Of a stretch of DNA of 64,000 nucleotides, positions 16,962-52,206 are shown piece by piece. The notes under the pieces were generated by a model. It did not search any database. It was not told where the DNA came from and saw only the letters and a list, made by a program, of their open reading frames with translations. The stretch lies in IMG/VR virus record IMGVR_UViG_3300033489_000007, positions 1,342 to 65,341 of that record. The stretch is one strand, 5' to 3'. Position 1 is the stretch's first letter, and each line of letters starts with the position of its first letter. This DNA comes from a virus. Position numbers and translations under genes: made by a program.

Positions 16962-16968
16962 CTTAACC

Positions 16969-24869: not shown

Positions 24870-25079
24870 CTACGGAATAGATTCAATCGCCTTTTTCTCT
24901 GTAATAATCCAAGCTACGGGTAGATTCTGCGGGTCGGCCAACATATGTATCACGATTGCCTGAATTTCAAGTTTGTCATTATCTAATAAATTAGACCACA
25001 ACGCTCTAGCTTCGTTTTCGGATGCATAGGCTGTTTTATACACGATATCTGGATTACTCATGTTCTTCCTCCAGTTCAA
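24870..25079 (-). CDS. hypothetical protein (69 aa)
   Basis: Small ORF. Confidence 0.3.
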   Translation of the reverse strand: MNWRKNMSNPDIVYKTAYASENEARALWSNLLDNDKLEIQAIVIHMLADPQNLPVAWIITEKKAIESIP

Positions 25080-28942: not shown

Positions 28943-29260
28943 TTAAGCCGCTGCCTTTTCGCGCAGAGCGCGCCGTAGCATATTACCCAGGTTCATGCGC
29001 TGCATGCCGGGGTTCAAGTGTTTGAAACGCTTGCGTAGATCAACCTCTTCCTCTTTGATCTTCTTTGCTACGAGTGTATAAACTTCGTCGATCGTCTTGC
29101 CTCCCAACATCTGGGCAACGTCGTCACCGCTATCTCGGGACGTGGCTCCCTTGGCATTCTTCACAGTACGATAGTGGCTGATGTCGTGTTCAATGCCCGC
29201 GATGGCACGTACGCCTGCCGATGTCTTGTCAGTCTTGGTAGACTTTTTCTTACTAGCCAT
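28943..29260 (-). CDS. small basic protein, paralogue family member 1 (C-terminal HLNPGMQRMNLGN motif)
   Basis: 105 aa, Lys-rich. Shares its C-terminal ~45 aa with 34803..35228 and 48107..48643. Confidence 0.5.
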   Translation of the reverse strand: MASKKKSTKTDKTSAGVRAIAGIEHDISHYRTVKNAKGATSRDSGDDVAQMLGGKTIDEVYTLVAKKIKEEEVDLRKRFKHLNPGMQRMNLGNMLRRALREKAAA

Positions 29261-31215: not shown

Positions 31216-31596
31216 GCCGCCACCGCTTGATGTTCGTACAGACGCACGACCGAACCGCACGCTAGGGTGTTAGCCATAGTGCGCGCTTCGACTTCCGATG
31301 CCTCCTCGATCCAGACGCGGTGCTCCCTGCCGTCTTCATCTTTCCACACGGCCTCAAAGACCCTCAGGCGCACCGGGACCCGAGCCAACAAATAATTTCC
31401 CATGGTCATAACCCTCTATCAGCTATCGCTATTAGAACACCATAAGTCCCATCTTGTCAATCCTCAAGTCCCTCACAGGGTCGGATGTCCTTTCGTGGTT
31501 CGTCAGTGCCGTCTGACTTGACTACCTCAGACACCTCACCAAATATTTGCTCGATATACTCGATATGGCGTTGACTCAAGTGTCTAGGCAAGTTGA

Positions 31597-34802: not shown

Positions 34803-35228
34803 CTAGGCTGCCGCCTGTTGGTTCAGCGCCGCACGGATTCGGTTGCCCAAATTCATGCGTTGCATGCCGACGTTGAGGTGGGCGTACTTGGTCTCAAGTT
34901 CTTTCTTGCTGACCTTCAGCATCTTTGATGCCTTCTTATACACTTCCTCCAGCGGCGTGCCGCGCAAGTCTTTGGCCACCTTGTCGGCGCAGTCCAGGGA
35001 TGAATTGCCCTCGGCGCTCACCACGCCTTCGTAGCGGCTGGTGTCATAGCGCTTGTTACCGATCCGGCGCAAGCCGTCCTTTTCGGTAATCAGCAACTGC
35101 GAGGCGCGGGCCTTTTTGGTCTCGCCCTTCGCGTCGGTGTAGGTAACCCAGCCGCGTACAGTTGCTTGCACTTGCGACGCCGCGATTCTCTTCAACTTTT
35201 TAGCGCTCATTGCATTCTCCTCTATCAA
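34803..35228 (-). CDS. small basic protein, paralogue family member 2
   Basis: 141 aa. C-terminal YAHLNVGMQRMNLGNRIRAAL. Its N-terminal half is also similar to member 3. Confidence 0.5.
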   Translation of the reverse strand: MIEENAMSAKKLKRIAASQVQATVRGWVTYTDAKGETKKARASQLLITEKDGLRRIGNKRYDTSRYEGVVSAEGNSSLDCADKVAKDLRGTPLEEVYKKASKMLKVSKKELETKYAHLNVGMQRMNLGNRIRAALNQQAAA

Positions 35229-35898: not shown

Positions 35899-36207
35899 TC
35901 ATGCTTCCACCTTTACAGGTATTCCGCCGATGTTAGGGTTGCTGCGCTCGACGCCACCTTTTTGTTTGATCCATGGCCCGGGCGGGTCACCGTGACCGTC
36001 CCACTCTATTAAGGCTAATATCGCGTCGCCGAACGTAGGGTAACAATATCGCGTCCGGTAGCCCGTATCGTCCAACCCGACGCACAGGCCATAAGTAAAT
36101 AAGAAAGCCATAATACCGGCCAGTTCACCGGTCGCGGGCAGGTGGCAGACAAAACCATAACCGTAGCTTTCCAACCGTAACAACAATTCATCTGTTGGCG
36201 GTGTCAT
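35899..36207 (-). CDS. hypothetical protein (102 aa)
   Basis: ORF. Confidence 0.35.
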   Translation of the reverse strand: MTPPTDELLLRLESYGYGFVCHLPATGELAGIMAFLFTYGLCVGLDDTGYRTRYCYPTFGDAILALIEWDGHGDPPGPWIKQKGGVERSNPNIGGIPVKVEA

Positions 36208-36502
36208 CAGTCACCTCTACGTCGCGCTTTAAATAGCGTTGATTGCGCTCTACCTTCTTTTTCCACTCCACCTTGTTTTCCTTCCAGCGCTCCTCGCCGC
36301 TGATGTTCTCAATGTAAACCATGCCGAACGAATCGACCATAGTGATCCGCATCAAACAACCGAACTCACACCAAATTTGACCCGGTGCCGGGGTAACGTA
36401 TTTAGTCTCACAGTGCCTGCGCCAATCCCGAAATTGAACATACGCAACATATGTTACAACCCAAACCAAAAGCCCTATGATGATTTTAATAGACAGCAGC
36501 AT
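36188..36502 (-). CDS. membrane protein (104 aa)
   Basis: N-terminal transmembrane segment LLSIKIIIGLLVWVVTYVAYV. Confidence 0.35.
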   Translation of the reverse strand: MLLSIKIIIGLLVWVVTYVAYVQFRDWRRHCETKYVTPAPGQIWCEFGCLMRITMVDSFGMVYIENISGEERWKENKVEWKKKVERNQRYLKRDVEVTDDTANR

Positions 36503-36865
36503 GACTAAGCCTTTGTTCCAATAAGTATAAGCCGTTTAAATCCGTTAATAGTCCTGAATTGAAATTCCCTGTGGCACGGCTTCAATAAAGTGTGGTAATA
36601 GTGACGCGTACATTTATCCAAGACGATGGACACCGGGCCGCGTTTATACTTAACCATTGGGAGTCTAACCGTCACCACCCGCGCGATTTTCCTCAGCGCC
36701 TTTGCCTTACTTCCGCGCATGGTTCTTTCTCCTCGACATCACTGCTATTTCATTACGACGGCGTTGTCGCCGCTTGTTTGGGAAGAACCATGCCTGATAG
36801 TCGCTCATGGAGCCTTTGGGTCGATTACTGCCCTTGTTCTTACGGTGCATCGGCATTGGGTGGTC

Positions 36866-37141
36866 CTACTTGTTGTTAGCGCCCGGTGGCAAATTGATGA
36901 TCCCACCGGCGGCAGTCATCCATGCGCCAAGCTCAAGTCGCAGCTCCAATACAGATTGCTCGTATTGCAGGCATTGCTGTTTCGTCGCCGCCAATGAGGC
37001 TTGCAGCTTATCGTTGAGCGCAGTCAGCCGCGCTACTTCATCCTGTGATCTGTTGTATCGCAATGTCTGTTTTGCGTATGCGTCTTCAATGCTCATAGTG
37101 CTTCCCCGTCGTCTGTAGCGGTGACTACTTGTTGCTGCCAC
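36866..37141 (-). CDS. coiled-coil protein sharing a C-terminal tail with the SPFH protein
   Basis: Ends in TAAGGIINLPPGANNK, against TAAGGIVNLPAGGSNK at the end of 37125..38114. Confidence 0.4.
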   Translation of the reverse strand: MAATSSHRYRRRGSTMSIEDAYAKQTLRYNRSQDEVARLTALNDKLQASLAATKQQCLQYEQSVLELRLELGAWMTAAGGIINLPPGANNK

Positions 37142-38114
37142 CAGCAGGAAGATTCACGATGCCGCCAGCCGCAGTTAGTGGCACATACTCAGGCACATAC
37201 GCACCGTTCCAGCGAGTAGCCTTAATCTTGTCGATTTCAAGCTGGCGGAACTTAAGCTCAGTGTCTAGGTTCTGTGCAATAAGGCGGTTGTAGTCGCTGA
37301 TGCCTTGACCTTCCGAGCGCTTCGCAGCAGCACGAAGCTCAGCGGCTGCTTTCTCACCTTCGGCCTGTGCAATGAGCGCCTTGGCCGACGCCTCTGCCTC
37401 AATAGCCTTGGCTCGTTGCTCTTGTTCTACGCGGTCTGCATTCGCCTTCGCAGTTGCTACCTTCTGCTGTGCATTCATCGTGGCTTTGATCTGCGCATCA
37501 AAGTCATCCGACCAATCCCAGTTGGTCAGGTTGAATTGGTTGAGCACGACCGGGTACGGCTCCAGCTTTAAGGCTGCTGCCTTGCGCGTTTCTCCAGCAA
37601 TTTTACCGGCGTTGGTGGCAAGGTCATAAATACGGTATCTGCCGATTTCAGCCTTGAGCGCCTCGTATACAGTGTTAGTGACGATTGACGCCAACTTGTC
37701 GGTATCGGGGTACTTATCCACAATCAGCCTAATTTGATCGCTGTTATAGGACCACACGACCTTCGACCCGATGCCCACAGTTTGGTTGTCAGACGTTACT
37801 GCGCCTTGCGGTCCAACTTCAATATCCATGTCTTCAGTGTGAGGGGCTAGGTTGTAAGTACGGAACGACGACACAATCGGCCATTTGTACTGCAAACCCG
37901 GGCTGTAAACTTCATTTGATACGGTGCCCAATGTCACCTTGACTGCGCGTTCCGAAGGGGCGATTACCGTAAAGCTGCCGTAGGCAAGAACTAACAGCGC
38001 CAGCGTCACGGCCGAGTCACGGAGTACTGCAAACTCGTTTAGGTCCTGTACTTTTCGTGGCGGCGAGTAGCTATTGTCCATTCGCTCTGTGTAATAACGA
38101 CTGAATATTGACAT
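37125..38114 (-). CDS. SPFH/band-7 (prohibitin/HflC-like) membrane protein
   Basis: N-terminal transmembrane segment, then ERAVKVTLGTVSNEVYSPGLQYKWPIV ... followed by a long Ala/Glu/Lys coiled coil. This is the typical SPFH domain layout. Confidence 0.7.
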   Translation of the reverse strand: MSIFSRYYTERMDNSYSPPRKVQDLNEFAVLRDSAVTLALLVLAYGSFTVIAPSERAVKVTLGTVSNEVYSPGLQYKWPIVSSFRTYNLAPHTEDMDIEVGPQGAVTSDNQTVGIGSKVVWSYNSDQIRLIVDKYPDTDKLASIVTNTVYEALKAEIGRYRIYDLATNAGKIAGETRKAAALKLEPYPVVLNQFNLTNWDWSDDFDAQIKATMNAQQKVATAKANADRVEQEQRAKAIEAEASAKALIAQAEGEKAAAELRAAAKRSEGQGISDYNRLIAQNLDTELKFRQLEIDKIKATRWNGAYVPEYVPLTAAGGIVNLPAGGSNK

Positions 38115-38134
38115 ATTGTTTGTTCCTGTTTATT

Positions 38135-38182
38135 AAATAAAAATGGGGTTAGCCAGCCCAGCCCGTGAATCTAAGGCTAACC
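38135..38182 (-). terminator. rho-independent terminator between the AAA+ and SPFH genes
   Basis: Stem GGTTAGCC/GGCTAACC followed on the − strand by CCATTTTTATTT. Confidence 0.5.
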
Positions 38183-38210
38183 AACCCCACCCAAGTCCCG
38201 TGAGGGCTTG

Positions 38211-39683
38211 TTACTTGTTGACCGCCCTCAGCACCATCTTGGCGTTGTCATGGGCGGTCGGCACGCGACCCGAGACCACGTCGTCCATTGCAGCGCGCAT
38301 CAAGCCGTCAATGGTCGGCGCAGCATCGGGCGGCGTCATCGCACGCTTGAGCAGCTCGGTCTGACCCTTGATGGTATGCGCGGCATCCACCAGCGCGTCC
38401 GACGTCAACTTGGTGATTGGTTCACCCTTCGGCTGATACGTCATCTGAGCCAGCTTAGCCCGCTTGACTACCTCGGCAATCACTGCAGGGATTTGTCCTT
38501 CCAGCAATGCAGCGACCGGCGCAAGGTCCGCGCCCTCGACCAATGAGCCGCCATACAGCCGCACCAACTTTTGTACCGCTTCGGCGTCGGGTGCCGTGAC
38601 TTCGATCACGGCGTCCAGGCGGCCCGGTCGCAACATAGCTGGGTTAATCAGCTCCATGTGGTTGGTCGTCAACACCACGATAGTGTGGGAACGTTTCGAG
38701 TCGATGCCGTCGATAATGTTGAGAATGTCGTCCATTGCTACTGACCGCTCGCCCGCTACCACTCGGTCGATGTCCTCGCAGAACACCACGCAGGCAGGAG
38801 ACTGGTACTGCTGGGCGAATTGGATCGCCATGCTCAGTTCGTCGGCGCGCGGGATGTAAATGTACGTGATACCCGCCTCGACCGCCAGTTTGGCTGCGGC
38901 GGTCGCCGCCAACGTCTTGCCGGTGCCATACGGGCCACCCAACAACACGCCGCGCTTGATCGGGATACCGTTTTCCAAGCACTCTTGGGCGCGGCTGATC
39001 GGCGTAAACAGGTTGGTCGTTACCATTCGCATCAACGTCTGCGAGAAAATCAAATTCTCAGGGCCGAGGTCCGCAGTCATGAATTTGATGTCTGGCATCG
39101 ACATCACATCGCCGTCGTCACCCTTGAAACGAATCTTCAATGCCTTACCTTTGTAAATGCTGTTGCCCTTCAATTCGGCAGTCACGGCGTCAAAGATGCG
39201 GCGCACAGTGGGCTCGTCACGCCGCACGATTTCGGCAGTTATGGCGAACATAACACGGCCGTTCTTGTTGGTCACATGGGTCTGGATGAAGCCCTTGACG
39301 TTGGGTACTTCGAACCGGCCCCAGGGAATCAACTTGGTCTTACCCACGCCGACTTCAACGTCGATCATTTGTGGGGGCTCATCGCCGAAGAACCCCGGTG
39401 TCGGGATGCCCTGCGCCCAACCGTAGATGTTCGACAGTACAGTCACCAAAGCGTTAGCGCCGTCGAACGGGTGCACATCAATGGTCGTGCTCATTTGGGT
39501 TACTTTGTTTTCGTACTCGGCGCGCTCCTTGATGGTACGGATGGCATCGGCATAGTCCATTTCTTCCGGGATCAAAATTTTGTCGCCAAGGCGGACGATG
39601 TCCGCCGTAACCATCTGTGTGGGCATGGCGGCTAAGGTGCGACCGTTATGCTCACGTACGAATTTAGAGTTGTCTTCGGGCAT
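38211..39683 (-). CDS. AAA+ ATPase (classic clade, FtsH/CDC48-like ATPase module without a protease domain)
   Basis: Walker A GVLLGGPYGTGKT, Walker B VVFCEDIDRV, second region of homology VLTTNHMELINPAMLRPGRLDAVIEV. Confidence 0.8.
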   Translation of the reverse strand: MPEDNSKFVREHNGRTLAAMPTQMVTADIVRLGDKILIPEEMDYADAIRTIKERAEYENKVTQMSTTIDVHPFDGANALVTVLSNIYGWAQGIPTPGFFGDEPPQMIDVEVGVGKTKLIPWGRFEVPNVKGFIQTHVTNKNGRVMFAITAEIVRRDEPTVRRIFDAVTAELKGNSIYKGKALKIRFKGDDGDVMSMPDIKFMTADLGPENLIFSQTLMRMVTTNLFTPISRAQECLENGIPIKRGVLLGGPYGTGKTLAATAAAKLAVEAGITYIYIPRADELSMAIQFAQQYQSPACVVFCEDIDRVVAGERSVAMDDILNIIDGIDSKRSHTIVVLTTNHMELINPAMLRPGRLDAVIEVTAPDAEAVQKLVRLYGGSLVEGADLAPVAALLEGQIPAVIAEVVKRAKLAQMTYQPKGEPITKLTSDALVDAAHTIKGQTELLKRAMTPPDAAPTIDGLMRAAMDDVVSGRVPTAHDNAKMVLRAVNK

Positions 39684-39741
39684 TACTGCTAATCTCCTGC
39701 TCAGGGGTGTTATTGACTATCGACTATCTGACAGCTCGGGT

Positions 39742-39770
39742 AGTATAGCACGGGACGACAGCCCCGTGAA
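39742..39770 (-). promoter_or_regulatory. putative promoter TTCACG-17-TATACT upstream of the AAA+ gene
   Basis: − strand reading of the 39684–39772 intergenic region. Confidence 0.3.
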
Positions 39771-39772
39771 GA

Positions 39773-40285
39773 TTAAACGTCGGTGAAGATGGCGTCAAGC
39801 AGCTGTGATTGTAAGACGTCACCTTCTTTGGCAAGCTGGGGTGGCGTGTCGTCAAACACTATCTTGCCCTCGGCACCGCGGTCAAAGCGCCTGTTGATAT
39901 AAAATGTGTCGCCATGAAGGGTTTTGGCCTCTATGATGTAACACTCCCACCGGTCGTCGCGCTCCGACGGCGGGCGGTCGTCAGTTACGCCCTTTACCAA
40001 TTCCGCGCCCCACGCCTCGCTCATGTGCACAACCATACCGATGGCCATAGGGGTGCCCTTGGTCATTCTGATCATTTTATTGAGGGCGAGGGTAACGCGC
40101 TCCGGCGGCAAACCAAACGCTGGCTTGAGCACATGTCCGTTATTACCCTCGTGGTCGAACAGCAAGTACATATTCAGGAGCTCGCCATTTTTTTCTAGGA
40201 TCGCCTCCACAAACACTGCCAGCGTCAGCATAAACCGAGTCAACGCCGCCTTATCACGTATATCAACTTGCCACTTGTTTATCAT
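39773..40285 (-). CDS. hypothetical protein (170 aa)
   Basis: ORF. Confidence 0.4.
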   Translation of the reverse strand: MINKWQVDIRDKAALTRFMLTLAVFVEAILEKNGELLNMYLLFDHEGNNGHVLKPAFGLPPERVTLALNKMIRMTKGTPMAIGMVVHMSEAWGAELVKGVTDDRPPSERDDRWECYIIEAKTLHGDTFYINRRFDRGAEGKIVFDDTPPQLAKEGDVLQSQLLDAIFTDV

Positions 40286-40685
40286 GTTGTTCTCGTATTG
40301 GTTGCTCGATACAAGTCGAGGATGTGGTCACGGGACTGCATCGGCGTCATCACATGATACCAATTGCCCGATTTGAAGCGGCGGAAGCGCACCGCACGCC
40401 CGTGGTTTGTGCCGACACGCCACAGTTCGATCACCATCAACTTGTTGGCGTACGGTGGGAAAAATATGACTGTTGCACTCATACCGGGATGCCCTCGTCG
40501 TTTGCGATCTTGCTGATGTGCCTACCTTTTAACCGCACTAGTTGCAGCAACTCGTCACCGCTAAAGTCACTCCTAAGCGCTTTGATTATTATCTCCCTGA
40601 GGTCTGGCGGCATTTCCCCATCGGGCAAGTCGTCACAGGCTAGGAGCAATGATTCGAGTGGTAAGTTATTGAGCGCCATAAATGG

Positions 40686-40892
40686 TCACCGCTTCAATCT
40701 GAGCGTATGGGGACCGTGGGGGGTGTCCGCGTCTTTTTCTTTTCTAGCGCGTACCTCCTCTCTATCCACTGCCGTTTCAGCGGGGGCGACTATGCCCAGT
40801 TTGACCTGTGACCCGAATACGCTCAACACTGTTACTACAATGTCGTCGCCGATGATGATTGACTCACCGGGCCTTCTAGTTAATATCAACAT
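40686..40892 (-). CDS. csrA: CsrA/RsmA-family RNA-binding translational regulator homologue
   Basis: [47 protein letters not shown] aligns with the CsrA N-terminus (MLILTRRVGE..IGD...TVL...G..V.IG..AP....V.REE). Strong RBS AAGGAGAG 6 nt upstream of this ATG. Confidence 0.75.
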
Positions 40893-41223
40893 CACTATCT
40901 CTCCTTTTGCGTTGTTCCAACTCAAACACGTGCCGCACTATTTCACCCCATCCGTCGGGCCTAACCCTCAACAAACATGTGTCTATGAAACGCATGATCG
41001 TGTTCGGTCGTTGGGGTCGGATATCATGGCCTGTGCCAATCAAGATAATGTTGCGGAGGCTAAGCTCAGCAGCCTCGGTGTCGCATATCGCCCACAGACA
41101 TACGCGGTCATTACCGGCGTCGTCGGGCTGTACTTTAGCGCTTATTATGTGCGCGTCGTCGGGCATCCACACTTCCTGTTGGTGGACGGTGACTAGGGGG
41201 AACTTCCAAATTTGCGGCTTCAT
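40876..41223 (-). CDS. hypothetical protein downstream of sigma factor (115 aa)
   Basis: ATGA-coupled to the sigma gene. No recognisable motif. Confidence 0.4.
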
Positions 41224-41717
41224 GTTTTGCTATTTCTGAGTGTGCGGGTCGTGTCGCGCAGGCCGCGCGCTATGTGGTGTTCGATGGTCTTTTCGCTTAG
41301 ACCGAAGCGTTGAGCTAGCTGCCGGTACGACATCCCGTAAAACACCCGCAGCGAAAATATGGCCCGACATTTAGGTGGTAAATACCTAACAGCTTGCAGT
41401 AAAAGGTCGGACTGCTGCGCCGCTATCATCAATTCTTCCAGCGATTCGTCGCCCGACAAGTGGTCATCAAAATCACCGCGCGGCTCTGTTTTGATTATGC
41501 TATCGTGGCGGTGCGAGTTAATGGCTAGATGATGAGCCACGGTGAACAGAAATGCGCGCGGCACGTCCGCCCTGTCCGCGTTTTGATGGGTCCTCAAAAA
41601 AGCTTCCTGCACGATGTCGTCAATAGCCTGTTCATTGATCCCCAGACGCCTGATGTAACAACGCAGGTCAACATAGCTGCTTTTAAACAGCTCGGTTATC
41701 GTGTTTGTTGCGCTCAT
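41220..41717 (-). CDS. ECF-type sigma-70 family sigma factor
   Basis: Region 2 (IDDIVQEAFLRTHQ) and region 4 HTH (KCRAIFSLRVFYGMSYRQLAQRFGLSEKTIEHHIARGL). Confidence 0.8.
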   Translation of the reverse strand: MSATNTITELFKSSYVDLRCYIRRLGINEQAIDDIVQEAFLRTHQNADRADVPRAFLFTVAHHLAINSHRHDSIIKTEPRGDFDDHLSGDESLEELMIAAQQSDLLLQAVRYLPPKCRAIFSLRVFYGMSYRQLAQRFGLSEKTIEHHIARGLRDTTRTLRNSKT

Positions 41718-41747
41718 TGCTGCCTGCCTCCGTCATCCTGTACTGTT

Positions 41748-41778
41748 ATTATAGCACGCGCGACCCGCGCCGCCAAGA
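41748..41778 (-). promoter_or_regulatory. putative sigma70 promoter with extended −10 (cTTGGCg-17-TGcTATAAT) upstream of the sigma factor gene
   Basis: − strand reading. A GC palindrome GCGCGacCCGCGC sits in the spacer. Confidence 0.4.
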
Positions 41779-41811
41779 TTCAATTATGTGGGTGCCGTCT
41801 TTACTATCATT

Positions 41812-42108
41812 TTAAACTTCCTTCCTCATTAAATACACGACCCTTAAATAGCCCACCTGTGGCGTCGGCGGGTGGAGGTGCACTTCGCTTGGGGCTAACC
41901 CGTGGCGGCTCGGGATGAGGGTATAATAGCTTGGGGCTGATCCCTGCCTAGTAATGCACTCCTTGGTTGCAGCTACCTCAAAATCGCCCGGGGCCAACTG
42001 CTGCAGTGAATATGACACCTTATTATAGCGTTGACGGTAGGTCACGTACAATACCTGCTCGCATCCGAGCGGCATCGCTACCTTAGACACCCCTGCTTTG
42101 ATTTTCAT
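41812..42108 (-). CDS. hypothetical protein (98 aa)
   Basis: Coupled ORF. Confidence 0.35.
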   Translation of the reverse strand: MKIKAGVSKVAMPLGCEQVLYVTYRQRYNKVSYSLQQLAPGDFEVAATKECITRQGSAPSYYTLIPSRHGLAPSEVHLHPPTPQVGYLRVVYLMRKEV

Positions 42109-42350
42109 TTACCCTCCGGTATTAGTTTTCCGATCCTGATGTCCAATACAATTGCCGCGCGCCATATCTGATCGACATAGATACGTGACCGACCAGCCTC
42201 AAGATTAGCAAGCTGCGATCTTGTTATCCCCATGCGTGCCGAAAGTTTTTCTTGAGTGACTTTCTTGAGCTTACGGGTAATAGCCAATCTTAAACCGATC
42301 TCCTGCTGAAACCCTCGCTGATCGAAAGACGGCTGTTTGGTATTTTTCAT
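42105..42350 (-). CDS. XRE-family helix-turn-helix transcriptional regulator
   Basis: LKKVTQEKLSARMGITRSQLANLEAGR is a classic Cro/CI-type HTH. Confidence 0.6.
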   Translation of the reverse strand: MKNTKQPSFDQRGFQQEIGLRLAITRKLKKVTQEKLSARMGITRSQLANLEAGRSRIYVDQIWRAAIVLDIRIGKLIPEGK

Positions 42351-42622
42351 TTACCCTCCAGACAGCGCAACGCTAACATGCACAACAAATCCGACTCGGT
42401 GAACTTTTCCTTGGTGCGGATCGAGCGCTCGGCGTTGCGCAGAAACAGGATGGCGTCGCTTACCCGCGTAGACCGCATAGCCTCCTTCGCGTGTTTAAGC
42501 GCGGCCCGCGATGGAATCTCGATCGGGGCTAACGCTTTATTTGCGTTACGCGTCGCTTGATATCTGGCCCGCGTTTCGTCCGACCACTTACGCCCTTTCA
42601 ACGGGTGCGGTTTCTTTTTCAT
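42347..42622 (-). CDS. hypothetical basic protein (NUMOD3-like GRKWSDETRARY motif)
   Basis: Short basic ORF. Confidence 0.3.
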   Translation of the reverse strand: MKKKPHPLKGRKWSDETRARYQATRNANKALAPIEIPSRAALKHAKEAMRSTRVSDAILFLRNAERSIRTKEKFTESDLLCMLALRCLEGK

Positions 42623-42968
42623 CCTGCTTCTCCTCTATGTCGGCATGTTCTCGCTGATGCGGATCGACGGTAACGTTGAACAACATCAAATATTTCTCGG
42701 GGCAAATAGGCGTGGCCGGTAGCGGCCTCATGGTGGTCAGGCACTTGACTGGCCGGTCTAACAGCCAGAGGGTGCCTCGCGCGTCGTCACGTATTGCCAA
42801 CGTGCCTGGGCGACGACCATATAGTAATTCGATAATGGCGACAGCCTCGTGGTCGGGTATTTTACATATACACAACACTTCAGCGACCTCAAATTTACCG
42901 AAGGTGAGCGCCCTGCACCCCGGGACGATGGGTAATAACTTAGTCATAGCGTGTTTGAGTTGGAACAA
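42588..42968 (-). CDS. hypothetical protein (126 aa)
   Basis: ORF. Confidence 0.35.
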   Translation of the reverse strand: MFQLKHAMTKLLPIVPGCRALTFGKFEVAEVLCICKIPDHEAVAIIELLYGRRPGTLAIRDDARGTLWLLDRPVKCLTTMRPLPATPICPEKYLMLFNVTVDPHQREHADIEEKQDEKETAPVERA

Positions 42969-43837
42969 CGCAAAGCGTCCTCAACACTATTGGTACTAAC
43001 GAACCGAAATCGTCGGTGATCCAAAACCCCAAGTAACTTTCACCATTGGTCCCAAGCCACACTTGAAAGGTTGACGACCAAATAAAAAGATAGCTGCCGA
43101 TCCTCAGGTATTGGCTGCCGAACTGTTGGTAAAAATAATAGGTCATAACCGCTTCTCACTGGGTTTAGTGAGCGCCCTCACCATCAAATTCCACGCGTTG
43201 GCGGCGGCTTTCTTTCCAACCAGTTCAACACTCAACGCGTGCGACGTTTTCATAGCTTACTCCGCGCCCTGTGATAGCCGAGGCGCGCCAGTCGACAGCC
43301 CGCGACGACAATGAACAGCGCCCAAACGAGCGGGCCGCCGTACACCACTTGCAACAACGCTTCCCGCTTCGACTCCGGTGGCGGCAACTGAGTGAAGATG
43401 AAGCACATAATCAAAGATAACACAAACTCAATCATTTCTTGGCTCCCATGTTAGGGTTTAACCTTGTTTCCCTTGGTTCCGTAAAAATGATCCAACCTGC
43501 CGTTGTACATAGTCAACTTGCGGCGGCGCTCGACAATTTCTGCGGGCCGCTTCTTGTTCCAGTAATACAGAGACCCGCGACATAGCGCACACGCCTCGTG
43601 CTTCGAGTCGGCTGGCAACGTGTTGAGGCACTTGTCTATTATGCATTGTTTGTAGGTCATTTGAAATGCGCCTCCCATTCAGCCATTTGTTTAACTTTTT
43701 CACCCAGCAGGCGTAGACCGGCGGCTAGGCGCATCCAATGTTCAATGCTGGCCAACAAGGCTTGTTTGACGTCTTCGTCCATCTCATTTAGCTCCGGCCT
43801 ATAGATGACATTACCGCGAACGTGAAATCGTACTCGC

Positions 43838-44110
43838 TCACAGCAATTCGGCCAAGGGGTTGGTGGCAACGGTGGGTCGGCCCTCAACGCTCAGAGTGAA
43901 GCGCGCCCCCCGGCCCATGTCGCAATCGATCCCGTGGCTCGGCGGTGATTGCCAGTCGCACACGGGGCAATTGCCGCGAACGTTAGCCGCGTACCGGCGC
44001 ACAGCCCGCCCAAACCGGCCGACAGTGCGAATGGTGGAAAAGAGCTTACGGTGTCTCATAATTCTCTTCCCCGTCCTTGTCAATGCTGTAGAAAGAGTTA
44101 CCATTGTCAT
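43838..44110 (-). CDS. hypothetical protein (90 aa)
   Basis: ORF. Confidence 0.3.
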   Translation of the reverse strand: MTMVTLSTALTRTGKRIMRHRKLFSTIRTVGRFGRAVRRYAANVRGNCPVCDWQSPPSHGIDCDMGRGARFTLSVEGRPTVATNPLAELL

Positions 44111-44178
44111 ATGTTTCCTCGGGCGTGTCGTCCGGGCAACCCTTTACATACGCCTCGGCGCGGGTGAATGCAGGGCGG

Positions 44179-44457
44179 TCACGGCCCATACCACGGAAAA
44201 AGTTGACAGCACTCGCTCATTGTTAGCACTAGGCGCAACGCTTCGTACATGTCCGGTGCGGCCTTAATTAGCGCCGCGTTGCCCCGTGCTACATCGGTCG
44301 GGTAATAGGAGTATGAGCCGCGCGCATCGTTTTTAATTTCACAGACGATAGTCGCGGGCACAAAGCCGACGACGTCCGACGCATGCGGCCGGTGTAACGG
44401 CGTGCCTAGAATTTCACAACCAGCGACAACCCACGGCCCGGCTGTATAGGCGCTCAT
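44179..44457 (-). CDS. hypothetical protein (92 aa)
   Basis: ORF. Confidence 0.35.
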   Translation of the reverse strand: MSAYTAGPWVVAGCEILGTPLHRPHASDVVGFVPATIVCEIKNDARGSYSYYPTDVARGNAALIKAAPDMYEALRLVLTMSECCQLFPWYGP

Positions 44458-44744
44458 GATTGCACCTCACGCGCTTCCGCGATGCTGTTTAGGCGGTCTC
44501 GCAATGGTTTATTTATCTGTAGCGTACCGTCGTGCGCCCACACCCACGGACCGTTGTAGAAAATAACCCAATCAGTTAGCCAGCCGTCAGTAACGCAATA
44601 CCGGCCGGCCGCGGTACGTTCAAGGGTCTGTTTGCCGCTTTTAGCGATTAGTGTAGCCGCATGTTCAGCGGCCAACTGCGACTCACCGGCAACAGCCAGC
44701 ATGCGCCATTCGCGACGCTGCTTAAGTGTGATTTTGTTGCTCAT
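44454..44744 (-). CDS. hypothetical protein (96 aa)
   Basis: Coupled ORF. Confidence 0.35.
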   Translation of the reverse strand: MSNKITLKQRREWRMLAVAGESQLAAEHAATLIAKSGKQTLERTAAGRYCVTDGWLTDWVIFYNGPWVWAHDGTLQINKPLRDRLNSIAEAREVQS

Positions 44745-45011
44745 GTTTGCACCCGGCGAACCAAGTCGCCTGCAATCTCTATTGAGAAGGTACGCCCGTT
44801 GTGCTTGATCGTTTCTATGTTCATTTGGTCACCTAATTAACTGTTAGTTGAAATTGCGGGCGCGGCTAAACCATGTCGCGTTTACGAGCGACTTCGCGAA
44901 TATCTTCGCGTAGCTCTATGCCTCGCTCTTTGCAATACACGCTGAACTGTTGTGTTTCGCGCTTATCGCGAAAGTGGCCCGCCTGTTGTGCCAACTCGCA
45001 CAACCTCTGCA

Positions 45012-45506
45012 TTACATATGAGCCACTTCCGCGCTCGCACTTACTAACGCGCGCCACTTCTTCGCCGTCAATCTGCAAATAACCGGTAAATTCTGCGCCG
45101 TACCGGCTGCCCCAAATACTGCCCACAATCCCTTGACCGCCTCGGCGACCGCCTCGGCGACCGCCGCCTTATCATAAGGATTGACAGTGACCTCGATCAA
45201 CTCCTCGTAGAGGACCCTGACCACCACCTTTTGCGGGACTGGGTCCGCCTTTGGCTTGTTATCCCAGTCGGAGTCATAATCCGTGTCCTCGTTGATACGG
45301 AATGAAAACACTGGACGGCCCCCATGCGTGGTCGTCTGTTTATCCTCGTCAATGTGGACGGCATCATCACCCTCACGCACTCGATAGACAGACGATACCG
45401 GATTTAGCTCCCCCGAGCTGTTGGTGTCCCATATCCCGATCAGGCCGTCGGGCGGCAGCTCGCTTAAAGCCTTTATTAAGTCAGCGATTTTAAGGCCAGA
45501 TGACAT
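45012..45506 (-). CDS. hypothetical acidic protein (164 aa)
   Basis: Contains the AEAVAEAVK repeat encoded by a 12-bp tandem repeat. Confidence 0.4.
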   Translation of the reverse strand: MSSGLKIADLIKALSELPPDGLIGIWDTNSSGELNPVSSVYRVREGDDAVHIDEDKQTTTHGGRPVFSFRINEDTDYDSDWDNKPKADPVPQKVVVRVLYEELIEVTVNPYDKAAVAEAVAEAVKGLWAVFGAAGTAQNLPVICRLTAKKWRALVSASAEVAHM

Positions 45507-45549
45507 TTTGGCACCTCTATTGACTATCAGTTATCGAACTCTATACGTC

Positions 45550-45578
45550 ATTATAGCATGGGCCTAGGGGCCACACAA
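45550..45578 (-). promoter_or_regulatory. putative sigma70 promoter (TTGTGT-17-TATAAT)
   Basis: − strand reading upstream of 45506. Confidence 0.3.
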
Positions 45579-45805
45579 GACTAAAGGCAGTCACGGAGCT
45601 AACTTGGCCCCGGCACCCGATAACAGTGCCTCAAAGTCTGACAACCCCAACACCACATATTGCTCATCGGTGGCGGGGTGGGTCAACACAGCAACAGTGC
45701 CCGGCGGCAGTTTGGTAAGGGTTTCCCACAGTTCAACAGTGACGTCAAGCCTACCCCGATAGTTGACTTGCCCTGCTTTACACGCATCGTCAAAACTTGA
45801 CATGA

Positions 45806-46438
45806 CTACCCCTCACTTGGTAACGAATCGCGCGCGTGCTGCTGAGCGACTAACGCCGCCTGACGCAACTTGTCATTCTCCATGACCCTGCGCGCCAACA
45901 ACGTATCATCGCGCGGATTTGGCTCACGCATCAACATGCGGCGATAAGCCACGATGCGGCGATTAGCAGCACGCGCGATGACGACAAACTGGGCGGCAAG
46001 AGAAGCATTACCCTCCTCCAACTCCATGCGCGCAAGGCGCATATGCTTATTGCGATACCACCGAATGCGACGTACCGACGGGTGGCTGCCGCGCCGTGCC
46101 GGGCTGGCAAACTCCTGACACAATTTATGGTTTAGCGGAAAATCGTGATGCGGGAGCCTGTGCAACGCCCCTAACTCCTGAGTTAAACGCTTGAACTCCT
46201 TGTAAATATCGTTGCGAGTGACGGAATTCTTAGCAGCGGCCCAGTCGATCAACGCGCGATCCGCATCCCACAACCTGACCTGCATTGCAGTATGCACAGT
46301 GACGTCAAGCTCATACTCGCGACACTGTGCATCGTAACCTTCTTTATAATGCAACTTACCCGCGATCGACGACCACTTTGCCGCGACCTCGCACGCTAAC
46401 GAGTTGCGCTCTGCCAACAAGACTCTATAAGAAACCAT
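45806..46438 (-). CDS. hypothetical protein, first gene of leftward early operon (approx. 210 aa)
   Basis: Start chosen at MVSYRV, which has a GGAG upstream. The longer 46522 start is also possible. Confidence 0.4.
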   Translation of the reverse strand: MVSYRVLLAERNSLACEVAAKWSSIAGKLHYKEGYDAQCREYELDVTVHTAMQVRLWDADRALIDWAAAKNSVTRNDIYKEFKRLTQELGALHRLPHHDFPLNHKLCQEFASPARRGSHPSVRRIRWYRNKHMRLARMELEEGNASLAAQFVVIARAANRRIVAYRRMLMREPNPRDDTLLARRVMENDKLRQAALVAQQHARDSLPSEG

Positions 46439-46692
46439 AATGGGCGGCTCCGCGCGAGAGGAAATTGAAGTAGGTGGGGTGAGTGTAGTATAGCACATAG
46501 GCGACGCCGCGCATAGATTCAAAAGGCCGCGAACGTTGTTCAGCCGGTCTGGCAGCGTTACACTTCAGAGGTATATTCGGTGTTTTCTGTTATATTCAAA
46601 CACAGGGGGTGAATAGGCGAAGTATGCGCATTGGACATCATTGATGTTTTGATGGTCTCGACAGCAGCCTGGGTGGGGGTGTGAGCCCGGCA

Positions 46693-46714
46693 CTCAAAAA
46701 AGTTGTTTTTTGAG
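46693..46714. promoter_or_regulatory. perfect 9-bp inverted repeat CTCAAAAAAgttgTTTTTTGAG in the divergent control region, next to TTGACA (46719–46724)
   Basis: Read directly. Candidate operator or bidirectional element. Confidence 0.4.
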
Positions 46715-47001
46715 ATACTTGACAAAGAGAGAGAACCGGAGAAGAACGGACGACGAGAGAGAGAGGCGGCATACCTTAGTGGCTCAGTGCTAACCACGCG
46801 ACCCGAGACCCACATGTCTGACCGATCACTGAAGCTGATATCACCATTATACTTCCGAGAGCCTAGTCGTCAGGGCGTCTTTTTTCGGGAACCCGTAATG
46901 AGTGCCCGTGCGAACGGGCGTGCGTCGGTTGTGCTACGTGGTGAAGTTCGCACAACAACTACTTGACGCGGGTCGCGGGGTGTGCTACCCTACGTGCGCG
47001 T

Positions 47002-47460
47002 ATGAGCACGAACGAACCACAAATCCTAGATTTCCCGTTGCATATTCCAACGGCCGACTCGCGTCAACTAGTTGAGCACTTAGTTGCGTGCGACATCGAT
47101 CAAGAGTCGATTTGCTACATAATTAAGGCAACGCCGTTTGAGTTGCGTTTGCATTACGCAGGCGAGCTTAAACACGGGCTTGCGAACGCCACTGCGCAAA
47201 TGGCGCAAAGTGTGTTTCGTGCGGGTATTGCTGGCGACATGAAAGCCGCGACTTTCTGGCTCCGGTCGCGTGCGGGTTGGCGTGAAACCGTGCGCATCGA
47301 CAACCCTGCCGAAACCCCACAAGTGCAAGCCAAGGACAAGCAACAGCTTATCGACCGCATTGTTGGCTTGCTAACACCTGCACAAGCCGTTGCAGTGCTC
47401 AAGGCAGAGGCGGGCGAGACTTCGCAGAGCGCTGCGAAACCCGGGCCAACGCTCAACTAA
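47002..47460 (+). CDS. putative terminase small subunit
   Basis: KAATFWLRSRAGWRE resembles the conserved AA.FWLK.RAGW motif of Terminase_2-type small subunits, as recalled. First + strand gene after the control region. Confidence 0.4.
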   Translation: MSTNEPQILDFPLHIPTADSRQLVEHLVACDIDQESICYIIKATPFELRLHYAGELKHGLANATAQMAQSVFRAGIAGDMKAATFWLRSRAGWRETVRIDNPAETPQVQAKDKQQLIDRIVGLLTPAQAVAVLKAEAGETSQSAAKPGPTLN

Positions 47461-47665
47461 CCAGCTGTGCGAAATCCGCGACCTCAGACACGGCCGCGCC
47501 CACTTGATCCCAGGCCCGGGCTGTTTGCCTGTCGTTGTAGCTGGCCCGCACGTGTTCAGCTTTGCTGGCGCAAATAGCTGCGATCAGGTTAAGGGTTTCC
47601 TCTGCGCCGACTCGGTCAATAAGGGCCTCAAGTGTTTCTGCATCTTGCTGTGTAGACTTTAACAT
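47453..47665 (-). CDS. hypothetical protein (70 aa)
   Basis: ORF. Confidence 0.3.
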   Translation of the reverse strand: MLKSTQQDAETLEALIDRVGAEETLNLIAAICASKAEHVRASYNDRQTARAWDQVGAAVSEVADFAQLVS

Positions 47666-47776
47666 GTTACGCGTCCTTAGTCAGATAAGCCAATACCAAC
47701 AGCCCGCAACCCGGGACAAACGCCCCGGCCACAAAGGCTACCACCGCGAAAACTACCCACACGTTGCTGGGGTGCA

Positions 47777-48058
47777 TCACCGAACCTCAAGGTAGAAGTC
47801 GCTCAAAGCTTCCTCTAGGTCTGAGGTAGCCATGTCCTCGTTATCCGGCTCGGTGCTGTACACCAATTCTAGCTCCTCAGTCACGCTGATGAGGGCAACG
47901 CCGTCCATTAGCACCTCAACTAGGTCTTGGGCGTTGTAAGATTCAGCTATTTCCACAGCGGTGCGGTAAGCAAAGAACCGGCGCAAGTCGCGCTCTTCGT
48001 TGTTGGGGTTGGGTAAAGTAGCCACAAAGGCGGCCAAGGTTTCAGGCGTGTGTTTCAT
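47777..48058 (-). CDS. hypothetical acidic protein (93 aa)
   Basis: ORF. Confidence 0.35.
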   Translation of the reverse strand: MKHTPETLAAFVATLPNPNNEERDLRRFFAYRTAVEIAESYNAQDLVEVLMDGVALISVTEELELVYSTEPDNEDMATSDLEEALSDFYLEVR

Positions 48059-48106
48059 GTGTTTCTCCAGTTAAGGCCCGGGTCGCGGTCCCCGGGCAGC
48101 GAGTGT

Positions 48107-48643
48107 TTAGGCGTTCTTCGGGTCGTTGACGATCGCACGCTTGCGTTGCGCGCCCCGAATCCTGTTGCCTAGGTTCATGCGTTGCATCCCAGGGTTGAGC
48201 GCCTTGTATTGGGCACGCAGGCTGGTTTCGGTCACGCCCAGGTCTTTAGCCGCACGGGCGTAGACGTCGTCCAGCTCCAAGCCGCGCAGCTCAACAGCCA
48301 ACGCGTCACCCGAATCGAGCGTCTTGTTGCCGGTGGCTGACTTGGCCTTGACGTAGCCAGAGCAGTCGTGCTTGGTGTTGCCGACCCGGCGCAGCTTGAC
48401 GCCCGCGTCCTCTTCCTCGCCCTCGTCGTCTACCTTGCTTTTGCCCGCGTCCAACGCCTTTATGGCCGCTGTGACTGTTTTGGCAGTTAGCTGGGGTTTC
48501 GGGCTTCGGGCCGATTGCTCCTCGCCCAGCACCTCGATGTCCTTGTTGCGGACCTTGCACACAGTGCCCGCCTCGTTGTAGTAGGTCGTCCAGCTGCCTT
48601 TGCGCTCGATGAACTGCTCTTTGGTGATCTGTCGCTTTGCCAT
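48107..48643 (-). CDS. small basic protein, paralogue family member 3
   Basis: 178 aa. C-terminal YKALNPGMQRMNLGNRIRGA. Confidence 0.5.
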   Translation of the reverse strand: MAKRQITKEQFIERKGSWTTYYNEAGTVCKVRNKDIEVLGEEQSARSPKPQLTAKTVTAAIKALDAGKSKVDDEGEEEDAGVKLRRVGNTKHDCSGYVKAKSATGNKTLDSGDALAVELRGLELDDVYARAAKDLGVTETSLRAQYKALNPGMQRMNLGNRIRGAQRKRAIVNDPKNA

Positions 48644-49240
48644 ACTTGCTATCCTCTATGGGGCCGTGCACAATACCCGACCTGTTGTTAGTGTAACACA
48701 GTCGTTATCGCCGCATAACCCCTCGAACCATGATCGTTCACGATGGTTATCATCGTCGACAACGATGGTTCGAGCCCCTCGTTTCGCAGCGGCCTGCTAA
48801 AACAGAAGAAAAGAACGCGCCCGCGCACGCGTTGCAAGGCTCGTGCCAGCGTTATGCGGCGTTTGGCTCGGGCTGCGGGTTGGTTGTGCGGCGCAGCAAG
48901 ACTGGGGCGGGGCGACATGCAAGCCTCGTGCCAAAAGGGGCGATGGAGGGCAATCGCAGCTTGGGCGGCAACAGCCTAGGCAGAAACCGGGGCGAAAAAC
49001 CCGGCACCCCCTCGCGAAGCGACGTATAATGGGTCCCATCGTTCGTGTCGCGCTGAGACCGATAAGCTCTAAGATATATGTTATATCGTCCCGGGTCGCG
49101 GGCAATTCGTCGGGGGTCCCGGGCCGGGCCTTCATTATCGCGGGGTAAATGTCTCGGGTCCCTTCCTGCCTATTCCTATCGTATATGTGATCGTGCTATA
49201 CTTCGGTCATCTTTCTGTTCGCTTTGTGGGGTCCCATCGT
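48644..49240. promoter_or_regulatory. GC-rich non-coding control region with TATAAT (49025–49030) and repeated GGGTCCC(ATCGT) / CCCGGGTCGCGG motifs
   Basis: No credible ORF. Motif copies at 49031, 49090, 49114, 49156 and 49229. Confidence 0.5.
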
Positions 49241-49540
49241 ATGATTTCTCCTACTCCCGGTCGTATCGTTTGGTTCCGTCCCAATGGCTTTTATGATAGT
49301 ATTAACCATTACAATATTGGCGAGCCGTTGGCTGCGATGATTGTGCACGTATGGAATGATCGGATGGTTAACATCGTGTTGTTCGATTCGTCGGGTATGT
49401 CTTATCCATTCACGTCGGTGCATTTGCGGCAGCCGGAGGACCCGGTTCCTGTCGGCACGGGTTATGCTGAGTGGATGCCGTATCAGGTTGGGCAGGCCAA
49501 GCCTGCTGATGTCGTTACTGGTGCGGGTAGCGTCCCGTGA
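49241..49540 (+). CDS. hypothetical protein (approx. 99 aa)
   Basis: The ATG lies immediately after the GGGTCCCATCGT motif. The longer ORF from 49187 is also possible. Confidence 0.35.
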   Translation: MISPTPGRIVWFRPNGFYDSINHYNIGEPLAAMIVHVWNDRMVNIVLFDSSGMSYPFTSVHLRQPEDPVPVGTGYAEWMPYQVGQAKPADVVTGAGSVP

Positions 49541-49854
49541 GCAATTCGTTGGTCGACCAGGATATAATGACGTTTGAGGGCGAGTCGGACGTACTGGCTA
49601 TTGCCCCGATCAAATTTTGTGACGATCACCATGCTGAGTTGTTAGTGATCATGGCACGGCATGGTGTTACTGATGAAATGAAAGTGTCGCATGCAATTTT
49701 CTCGCTCGCGGCCCGTACTGTCGGCACCGATGTGTTATGTCAATACCGCTGCCCGATTTGCTTGTTCCAAAATTTCAATTTTATGACCGCGATGGTTGAG
49801 GTGTTTGCAACACCCGTTGCCCCACTGCATCCCGGCATAGTGTTGTCGTCATGA
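49537..49854 (+). CDS. hypothetical protein (105 aa)
   Basis: Coupled ORF. Confidence 0.35.
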   Translation: MSNSLVDQDIMTFEGESDVLAIAPIKFCDDHHAELLVIMARHGVTDEMKVSHAIFSLAARTVGTDVLCQYRCPICLFQNFNFMTAMVEVFATPVAPLHPGIVLSS

Positions 49855-50086
49855 ATTGGTTGCGCCAGAGAAAGATAGCACCGATCCGTTCTGGCGATTC
49901 GGGTCCCGTTGCATATTTAGCTCAATTGCTGGAGCAAGCTCAGGCTGGCCACATCAAGAGTGTTGTGGTGTCAGTGCAATATGATAATGGGTTCATAGCC
50001 GGTTCCATGAAGATGCCGATTTCCGACTTGTTGATGCATAAGGCCACGATTGATGAACATGTAGATGACCACTTCCGGGGTTCTAA

Positions 50087-50488
50087 ATGAGTCTGCAGGC
50101 TATGATCGACAGGATTGAGGCCACCTTCGATTGTAGTGTCGGTGATCCTTTTGCATACCACACTTTAGATGATGGTAATAAAGTGTGGTATTGTACGTTT
50201 GCGGTGCGTGGTAAAAGTTCTGTGCCCCATCCCGGGCTTGGTACCCCTATAATCTGGGGGGCTGAAGAAGATAAGCTTTGTGAAGCCATCCTACAGATGT
50301 TATTCGATTGGGCTAAGTTGAAATTGACGGCAGAGCGTAAAAGGTTATTTTGGCGTTATGCGGATAAGGTGCGCATAGAGTCGTACGGCTCGACTTATCA
50401 TCAAATTAGAATGAGGGTAGGTATTGAGGGTATAGAGCCTTCGGTGCACGACAGTTATGAGGGCAAGCTCCCCCAGTTGGTCATATGA
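50087..50488 (+). CDS. hypothetical protein (133 aa)
   Basis: Coupled ORF. Confidence 0.4.
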   Translation: MSLQAMIDRIEATFDCSVGDPFAYHTLDDGNKVWYCTFAVRGKSSVPHPGLGTPIIWGAEEDKLCEAILQMLFDWAKLKLTAERKRLFWRYADKVRIESYGSTYHQIRMRVGIEGIEPSVHDSYEGKLPQLVI

Positions 50489-51966: not shown

Positions 51967-51991
51967 GATAACATAATGTCAACCCCAGAAG
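51960..51991 (+). repeat. 32-bp exact direct repeat ACAATAGGATAACATAATGTCAACCCCAGAAG, copy 1 (copy 2 at 52190–52221)
   Basis: Identical strings cover the RBS and first five codons of both the 76-aa ORF and the portal gene. Confidence 0.9.
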
Positions 51992-52206
51992 TAGATAATG
52001 AATTGATTAATAGGCGTCTGAGGGAGGCTTTGCCACTTATGGATAAGGCTTTGTTAACTGGTGTTGCATTAGAACGGATTAAAATAGCTAGGATGATAGC
52101 GGGCGATATAGGGATCGATAGCGGTAGGGTGCTAACGTACTGGAACCAACATTCATGTGCTGATATTATAGACAGAGCCCTAACGACCGACAATAGGATA
52201 ACATAA
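51976..52206 (+). CDS. hypothetical small protein (76 aa) beginning MSTPE, same as the portal
   Basis: The 32-bp exact repeat spanning its RBS and start is repeated at the portal start. Confidence 0.35.
   Translation: MSTPEVDNELINRRLREALPLMDKALLTGVALERIKIARMIAGDIGIDSGRVLTYWNQHSCADIIDRALTTDNRIT

Follow-up and report, generated by a model that had tools for sequence, protein, structure and literature searches.

The csrA cluster and its carrier phage

The window, i.e., the whole 64,000-nt stretch of DNA that was analysed, contains a small gene encoding a CsrA-like protein of 68 aa, located exactly where the first-pass annotation had placed it (40686-40892) and starting with the 47 residues that were quoted there. 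The gene runs on the minus strand, which that annotation had left unstated, and its ATG (40892-40890) follows the Shine-Dalgarno-like sequence AAGGAGAG after a spacer of 6 nt (ATAGTG), so the excellent ribosome-binding site (RBS) attributed to it is evident in the sequence itself. Gene callers predicted the identical 68-aa product on three independent assemblies (P0001), the longest of which has 65,341 nt. A 79-aa version starting at an in-frame TTG (40925) was rejected because the homologues all begin with MLILTRR, the RBS precedes the ATG and the independent calls give 68 aa. Likewise, an antisense ORF of 290 aa that overlaps csrA (40324-41196, plus strand) was regarded as spurious, with no Pfam match and on the strand opposite to that of the gene block.

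csrA is the third gene of a compact cluster of six, in the order sigma factor, DUF7352, csrA, orf66, a second orf66 and orf170 (Table 1). The first of them encodes a sigma-70 family factor of the ECF type, with matches in Pfam to regions 2 (Sigma70_r2, E 7.8e-10) and 4 (Sigma70_r4_2, E 1.6e-15) but not to region 3 or region 1, and with a score of 74.4 bits against a cutoff of 42.9 for TIGR02937 (sigma70-ECF), in agreement with the ECF identity initially proposed for this neighbour. The DUF7352 gene overlaps both its neighbours, with its start on the stop codon of the sigma gene (ATGA) and with its final 17 nt on the beginning of csrA. The initial description of csrA as part of an operon directly downstream of the sigma gene therefore has to be amended: the compact cluster shared with the sigma factor stands, but the DUF7352 gene intervenes and csrA is located two genes downstream. 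Distant homologues of the DUF7352/phrog_3848 protein occur in Roseobacter, Vibrio, Pseudomonas and Xanthomonas phages, and no match above noise was obtained in Pfam, NCBIfam or PHROG for the products of both orf66 genes and orf170.

Upstream of the sigma gene, a gap of 94 nt harbours a sigma-70-like promoter candidate (TTGGCG and TATAAT separated by 17 nt, with a TG extension), joint best of two in the scanned region (36000-50500), this being a match to the sigma-70 consensus, which by itself is no proof of function. Inside the cluster, the minus strand showed nothing resembling a terminator, and the co-transcription of csrA with the sigma gene is plausible. The cluster is followed by a gap of 89 nt and then by the gene for an AAA+ ATPase, a relative of the FtsH/Cdc48 type in which no protease domain was detected, and the adjoining gene for a Band-7/SPFH (HflK/C-like) protein of 329 aa, an HflKC-like/FtsH-like pair that is curious in a phage. 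The ATPase is shared, at 52-55% identity, by phages as different as KPP25, Pylas, PhiW-14 and Gordonia phages, and it proved uninformative as a marker of relatedness, the neighbourhoods in KPP25, Pylas and PhiW-14 having no annotated csrA.

Table 1. Coordinates of csrA, its cluster and other features of the window (positions refer to the 64,000-nt stretch).
Feature	Coordinates	Strand	Description and basis
csrA-like CDS	40686..40892	minus	68 aa + stop codon; translation, Pfam, NCBIfam, PHROG, PDB, AlphaFold
Shine-Dalgarno-like AAGGAGAG	40906-40899	minus	read from sequence; inside 3' end of DUF7352 gene
sigma-70-like promoter candidate	41776-41748	minus	consensus scan, 10/12 matches
ECF-type sigma-70 family factor	41220..41717	minus	165 aa; first gene of cluster; Pfam, TIGR02937, phrog_1740
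DUF7352 gene	40876..41223	minus	115 aa; PF24043 E 2.3e-15, match from residue 1; phrog_3848 E 1.8e-16
orf66	40479..40679	minus	66 aa; 6 nt after csrA stop; called as gene on Logan contig
second orf66	40282..40482	minus	66 aa; overlaps preceding orf66 by 4 nt
orf170	39773..40285	minus	170 aa; overlaps preceding orf66 by 4 nt; last cluster gene
AAA+ ATPase gene	38211-39683	minus	490 aa; phrog_10440 E 1e-203
AAA+ ATPase and Band-7/SPFH region	37125-39683	minus
HD/YfbR-like dNTPase	15800-16444	minus	could be DatZ
PurZ-like adenylosuccinate-synthetase homologue	16969-18099	minus	phrog_1211 E 1.2e-71; Adenylsucc_synt E 3.3e-32
family-A DNA polymerase	18635-20467	minus	adjoins PurZ-like gene
dATP/dGTP diphosphohydrolase N-domain protein	25054-25554	minus	could be MazZ
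large terminase	50485-51966
portal	52206-54797	plus	starts with ACAATAGGATAACATAATGTCAACCCCAGAAG repeat
head protein	58067-58981
76-aa ORF	51976-52206		starts with ACAATAGGATAACATAATGTCAACCCCAGAAG repeat
ACAATAGGATAACATAATGTCAACCCCAGAAG repeat, two copies	51960-51991; 52190-52221	plus	exact, 32 nt
125-nt unit, two copies	63738-64000		runs into window end
54-nt segment, first copy	28961-29014		inside leftward gene 28943-29260
54-nt segment, second copy	34821-34874		inside leftward gene 34803-35210
54-nt segment, third copy	48143-48196		inside leftward gene 48107-48643

The phage origin assumed for this DNA is borne out by the content of the window, where genes for the terminase, the portal and the head protein, and further virion genes (a virion structural protein, a DNA-ejection protein and an SU10-type adaptor), are found together with replication genes, namely those for a family-A DNA polymerase, a primase and two helicases. 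The carrier is a tailed dsDNA phage of ~65 kb, with a GC content of ~52% and no tRNAs in the window. Its genes between ~15.8 and 49.1 kb, comprising early, middle and replication genes and also csrA, run leftward, and the structural genes run rightward. No integrase was found among the ORFs of at least 150 aa in the window, on which basis a temperate lifestyle was rejected and the phage is considered probably virulent. Its host is probably a gammaproteobacterium. Regarding its relatives, none was obtained when 8 kb were compared with GenBank phages by megablast or when IMG/VR was scanned for peptides of the sigma factor and of the AAA ATPase.

Several other features of this genome deserve a mention. 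The phage carries a gene set of the type associated with Z-genomes (2-aminoadenine) on the minus strand (15800-20467 and 25054-25554), made up of the PurZ-like gene with its adjoining polymerase gene and of the candidates for DatZ and MazZ, and in its DNA A may be replaced by Z. An exact direct repeat of 32 nt (ACAATAGGATAACATAATGTCAACCCCAGAAG), whose copies are 230 nt apart, provides in each copy the RBS and the first five codons of a gene (the 76-aa ORF and the portal gene, respectively), and it may represent a duplication scar or a recombination site. At the right end of the window there are two copies of a 125-nt unit, ~90% identical and spaced 138 nt, in a region of ~700 nt without an ORF call (TRF at its default score detected nothing), and these repeats could be part of an origin, a packaging region or the end of the genome. 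Finally, a 54-nt segment recurs inside three leftward genes with 65-76% identity between copies, which indicates a putative small family of paralogues across the early/middle region.

Family membership and substituted positions

Along with the proposal of a CsrA homologue, the first-pass annotation had suggested an HMM search against the Pfam CsrA family and an inspection of the RNA-binding residues, and both came out in its favour. The similarity is far beyond chance: PF02599 (CsrA) is matched over model positions 1-50 of 53 with E 9.3e-22 (77.2 bits, for a gathering score of 27), the PHROG family phrog_9500 ("CsrA-like regulator") over positions 1-57 of 65 with E 3.2e-27, E. coli CsrA by BLASTP with 51% identity and E 5e-21, ungapped before residue 47, and the CsrA/RsmA/RsmE chains of the PDB with E values of 1e-14 to 3e-16. 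In NCBIfam, the cutoff of NF002469 is barely reached (73.8 bits vs 73) and the score for the equivalog TIGR00202 stays below its cutoff (66.3 vs 70.1). In terms of its sequence, the phage protein is thus a clear member of the CsrA family, not confidently a housekeeping orthologue.

The predicted structure agrees with this assignment. An AlphaFold2 model built on 64 homologues reaches a mean pLDDT of 85, with values above 90 for residues 1-50, and presents beta strands, a helix at residues 45-56 and a disordered tail at residues 60-68, while beta1 and beta5 are left unpaired in the monomer, as expected for a domain-swapped dimer. When the model was compared with the PDB by Foldseek, the top 15 matches were all CsrA/RsmA/RsmE chains, with rmsd values of 1.3-1.8 Å (the range in which the model matches 1vpz, 2jpp and 5z38) and TM scores of 0.78-0.86 normalised to the target. 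By sequence and modelled fold, therefore, the ORF encodes a genuine protein of the CsrA/RsmA family.

As for the RNA-binding residues, R44 and the beta1 residues L2, L4, R6 and R7 are all present in ungapped alignments, V42 and E46 are conserved as well, and the residues that are invariant across the 64 homologues (L2, L4, R6, G33, P37, R44 and E46) are kept without exception. R44 has been described as essential for RNA binding (PMC7366521), and its replacement by alanine abolishes binding in the plasmid homologue RsmQ (PMC9928087). The phage protein is very probably a functional RNA binder of the CsrA family.

The RNA-contact motif VHRE/D (residues 42-45) reads VDRE in the phage protein, due to the replacement of H43 by Asp. 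Set against the 77 best distinct homologues encoded in genomes, which come almost entirely from Gammaproteobacteria and do not exceed 62% identity, the phage protein has ten positions in all at which a residue nearly fixed in the chromosomal homologues has changed: V or I to P at position 8, K to F at 26, R to K at 31, N to V at 35, K to A at 38, V to T at 40, H to D at 43, I to V at 47, Y to R at 48 and I to K at 51. Three of these ten substitutions take positive charge out of the core. Since the substitution H43A reduced the binding of RsmQ (PMC9928087), the affinity or the specificity of the phage protein may differ from those of canonical CsrA. D43 is absent from the 77 best gammaproteobacterial genome matches, but 18 of the 66 viral copies have it, as do many named chromosomal CsrAs. 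Furthermore, P8, D43 and K51 mark a broad natural lineage (its consensus includes AVDREEI..RK) to which named chromosomal CsrAs of Desulfovibrionales and Steroidobacteraceae belong, together with those 18 viral copies. Because the same states recur in this lineage, the substitutions are taken to be characteristic of the lineage, with a possible effect on affinity or specificity, and not to signal inactivation. The C-terminal tail (residues 57-68) is basic and disordered and ends in RLKR, which recalls the C-terminal SRLKP/SRLKR of Steroidobacteraceae-type paralogues, whose genes adjoin a GGDEF/EAL gene.

The same changes could be understood differently, as those of an antagonist or a rewired variant that titrates the CsrB/RsmZ-type decoys of the host, forms mixed dimers with host CsrA or reads an altered motif. 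The alteration of near-invariant positions, the loss of basic residues (K26F and K38A), the H43D change in the VHRE motif with its counterpart in the weakened RsmQ mutant, and the distinct basic tail would all fit such a protein, as would the observation that CsrA homologues differ in specificity in a way that identity does not predict (PMC13443453). This possibility is nonetheless distinctly improbable, given that R44 and the beta1 residues are intact, that D43, P8 and K51 are common in a lineage that includes chromosomal csrA genes, which is compatible with a working protein, and that there is no direct evidence of mixed dimers.

Possible targets and role during infection

CsrA proteins are domain-swapped homodimers. 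They recognise GGA displayed in the loops of hairpins, frequently on top of the Shine-Dalgarno sequence, and so keep the ribosome from binding (PMC7366521, PMC9928087). If the phage protein acted in the same way, would its main targets be mRNAs of the host or of the phage itself? No Rfam family, those of Csr/Rsm decoy sRNAs (CsrB/CsrC/RsmX/Y/Z type) included, reached its gathering score anywhere in the window, so that, as far as Rfam detects, the phage brings the CsrA protein alone; an apparent gap rich in GGA (31261-31596, with 10 motifs) was rejected as a decoy, being covered by ORFs of 65 and 80 aa. GGA counts, AnGGA motifs and simple hairpin-loop tests were then compared between the 111 translation-initiation regions of the phage and the intragenic background. 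GGA was not enriched in the initiation regions, with a mean of 1.13 per 60 nt vs 0.92 within genes and with three or more motifs in 9% of them vs 6.5% of random intragenic windows; neither AnGGA motifs nor hairpin loops exceeded the intragenic background in these 111 regions; and the SELEX-like motif ACARGGAWG occurs once, for 1.8 occurrences expected. The leader of csrA itself presents no significant hairpin or structure (z-score +0.84). Taken together, the absence of GGA enrichment, the lack of over-representation of the motif, the unstructured leader and the lack of a decoy argue, if weakly, for host mRNAs as targets and against a role directed at the phage itself.

These results weigh on the proposal that the protein mainly regulates phage mRNAs, as a temporal switch that would operate with the sigma factor, for example by shutting off early genes or its own operon. 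The location of csrA suits such a switch, since the gene shares a regulatory cluster of the early/middle block with an ECF sigma factor. Three GGA motifs or more are also present close to the start of a small number of phage genes, among them the helicase gene that begins at 27181. Moreover, the initiation region of csrA contains two GGA motifs 14 nt apart, one in TTGGAAC and the other in the Shine-Dalgarno sequence AAGGAGAG. E. coli csrA represses itself, and the two motifs resemble the geometry of that self-repression. However, with GGA not enriched, ACARGGAWG below expectation, no stable hairpin in the csrA leader and a sigma-csrA pairing that is not conserved elsewhere (see below), a protein devoted mainly to phage mRNAs seems unlikely.

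The reading favoured here is that of a genuine RNA binder of the CsrA family, encoded by an accessory gene of the phage and exerting host-directed translational repression, a statement that, taken as a whole, is considered somewhat more probable than its negation. For the part of it that names host rather than phage mRNAs as the main targets, the chances are put at even or slightly above. According to this proposal, the host RNA polymerase would transcribe the csrA cluster early in infection from the host-type promoter, and the phage CsrA would form the usual domain-swapped homodimer and bind GGA hairpin loops at or near Shine-Dalgarno sequences. The resulting increase in free CsrA activity would repress the translation of host mRNAs, in a host that is probably already running a Csr network. 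Stationary-phase, glycogen and biofilm functions are the candidate targets, possibly with defence genes such as cas operons, and the cell would be kept in a condition that favours the production of phage, with transcription being redirected by the phage sigma factor at the same time. The closest genomic CsrA homologues are almost all gammaproteobacterial, with up to 62% identity. The anti-defence part has its basis in the correlation by which phages with rsmA tend to have rsmA-bearing hosts, and in the repression of cas mRNAs by host RsmA (Campa et al., PMC8450108). In the literature searched, no experimental test of the proposed CRISPR-Cas suppression by a phage CsrA was found, and neither was the experimental characterisation of any phage CsrA.

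Are the sigma factor and CsrA partners, or just neighbours? When ten neighbour proteins were searched by tblastn within 4 kb of csrA in 80 other CsrA-bearing loci of IMG/VR, no shared neighbour appeared, and no csrA was found near the four sigma homologues, all of them distant (28-34% identity), that were the only ones recovered from JGI metagenomes. Since the link with the sigma factor is missing in these 80 viral loci and four sigma homologue loci, the operon context may be incidental, and support for the pairing as a module was not found in this comparison. A more ambitious version can still be formulated, in which both proteins would carry out a two-layer takeover: through the sigma factor, transcription would be shifted to the promoters of the phage, and a CsrA variant with a less basic core (D43) and a basic tail would escape the host decoy sRNAs or read a shifted motif, silencing host (possibly defence) mRNAs and sparing the phage transcripts, which show no GGA enrichment. 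This is a long shot but, if true, it would represent a dedicated viral device for translational host shutoff, built from a global regulator of the host.

The interest of the case lies in the position of CsrA as a master post-transcriptional regulator in many bacteria, whose mobile copies can take over host behaviour, as exemplified by RsmQ. The presence of a CsrA copy in a phage would, on its own, neither raise a new question nor surprise specialists. A divergent csrA clustered with a sigma gene, in a phage that is probably virulent and has a gene set of the Z-genome type, could offer a test case for CsrA-based host shutoff by virulent phages, and the natural substitutions at conserved surface positions could inform the work on CsrA specificity.

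Relatives and known systems

The phage protein is at most 71% identical to any sequence found and at most 62% identical to any genome copy. Its two nearest relatives (71% and 69% identity) are encoded on the contigs JBBCBH010005448.1 (L004, 132 kb) and k141_7438061 (L087, 10.6 kb), where csrA is surrounded by many small unannotated ORFs and by genes for ParB-like, HTH (HTH_36) and RecA-dependent-nuclease proteins; these contigs probably derive from other phages or plasmids. The more distant relatives (~59-62%) are chromosomal. This distribution hints at a CsrA lineage (PGE...VDREE) that circulates on mobile elements and has been inserted into different regulatory regions.

A further explanation has to be confronted with these relatives, namely that csrA is a passenger, acquired not long ago and without any role selected for in the phage life cycle. 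The gene has a patchy spread, being carried by ~1% of sequenced phages (PMC7366521), synteny is not conserved among CsrA-bearing loci, and no close relatives of the carrier phage, in which its conservation could be followed, were found in GenBank phages or IMG/VR, all of which would be expected from a passenger. Nonetheless, the low identity to any sequence, and even more to genome copies, speaks against a recent capture, the occurrence of the two nearest relatives in phage- or plasmid-like contexts suggests a lineage of mobile elements, all the invariant residues of the family have been kept, and the ORF is intact, preceded by a strong RBS and embedded by overlapping frames in a compact operon. 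A mere passenger is, in consequence, very improbable.

The novelty that the first-pass annotation implied for a phage-encoded CsrA does not hold, as such proteins have already been described and surveyed. csrA was reported in 30 of 2,517 phage genomes, including F116-like Pseudomonas phages (Sobrero and Valverde 2020, PMC7366521), and many copies were retrieved from GenBank and IMG/VR with an HMM of phage CsrA (Campa et al. 2021, PMC8450108). In the present searches, 83 phage records of GenBank and at least 510 contigs of IMG/VR proved to carry csrA. Most of the GenBank copies already bear an annotation as regulators of carbon storage or translation, and recent papers on phage genomes annotate the gene as a matter of course. 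Phage csrA is therefore known as a kind, and what is new here is this fairly divergent copy, unusual only in the phage that carries it, the genes around it and the substitutions on its surface.

In comparison with the chromosomal CsrA/RsmA/RsmE proteins (E. coli, 1y00; P. aeruginosa RsmA, 1vpz; P. protegens RsmE-RNA, 2jpp), to which it aligns without gaps over residues 1-47 with 51-60% identity, the phage protein shares the MLILTRR N-terminus, R44, V42, E45/E46, G33, P37 and, in its model, the fold (1.3-1.8 Å) and, like the gammaproteobacterial representatives, it is short and devoid of a FliW-binding extension. Unlike them, it is encoded by a phage, bears the ten substitutions and the basic disordered tail ending in RLKR, scores below the TIGR00202 cutoff and is accompanied by no decoy sRNA in the window. 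The CsrA/RsmA homologues of other phages (phrog_9500; the "RsmM" type of F116-like Pseudomonas phages; Vibrio phages; Providencia PSTCR8lys) are likewise short and borne by tailed phages, and the GenBank phage copies show 54-64% identity to the protein described here, the best among isolated phages being 64% over 47 residues. What distinguishes the present locus from theirs is its neighbourhood, with no shared synteny. F116 is a temperate phage, whereas the carrier studied here has no integrase and contains a Z-genome gene set.

CsrA copies have also been found on other mobile elements, such as RsmQ of the plasmid pQBR103 (PMC9928087) and the paralogue CsrT encoded by an ICE of Legionella. These differ from the present case in their carriers, a plasmid and an ICE vs a phage, and RsmQ keeps H43 where the phage protein has D43. 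RsmQ binds GGA/AnGGA hairpins via its VHRE motif and takes over the translational regulation of its host (PMC9928087), which makes it, by analogy, the closest functional precedent for the mechanism proposed for the phage protein.
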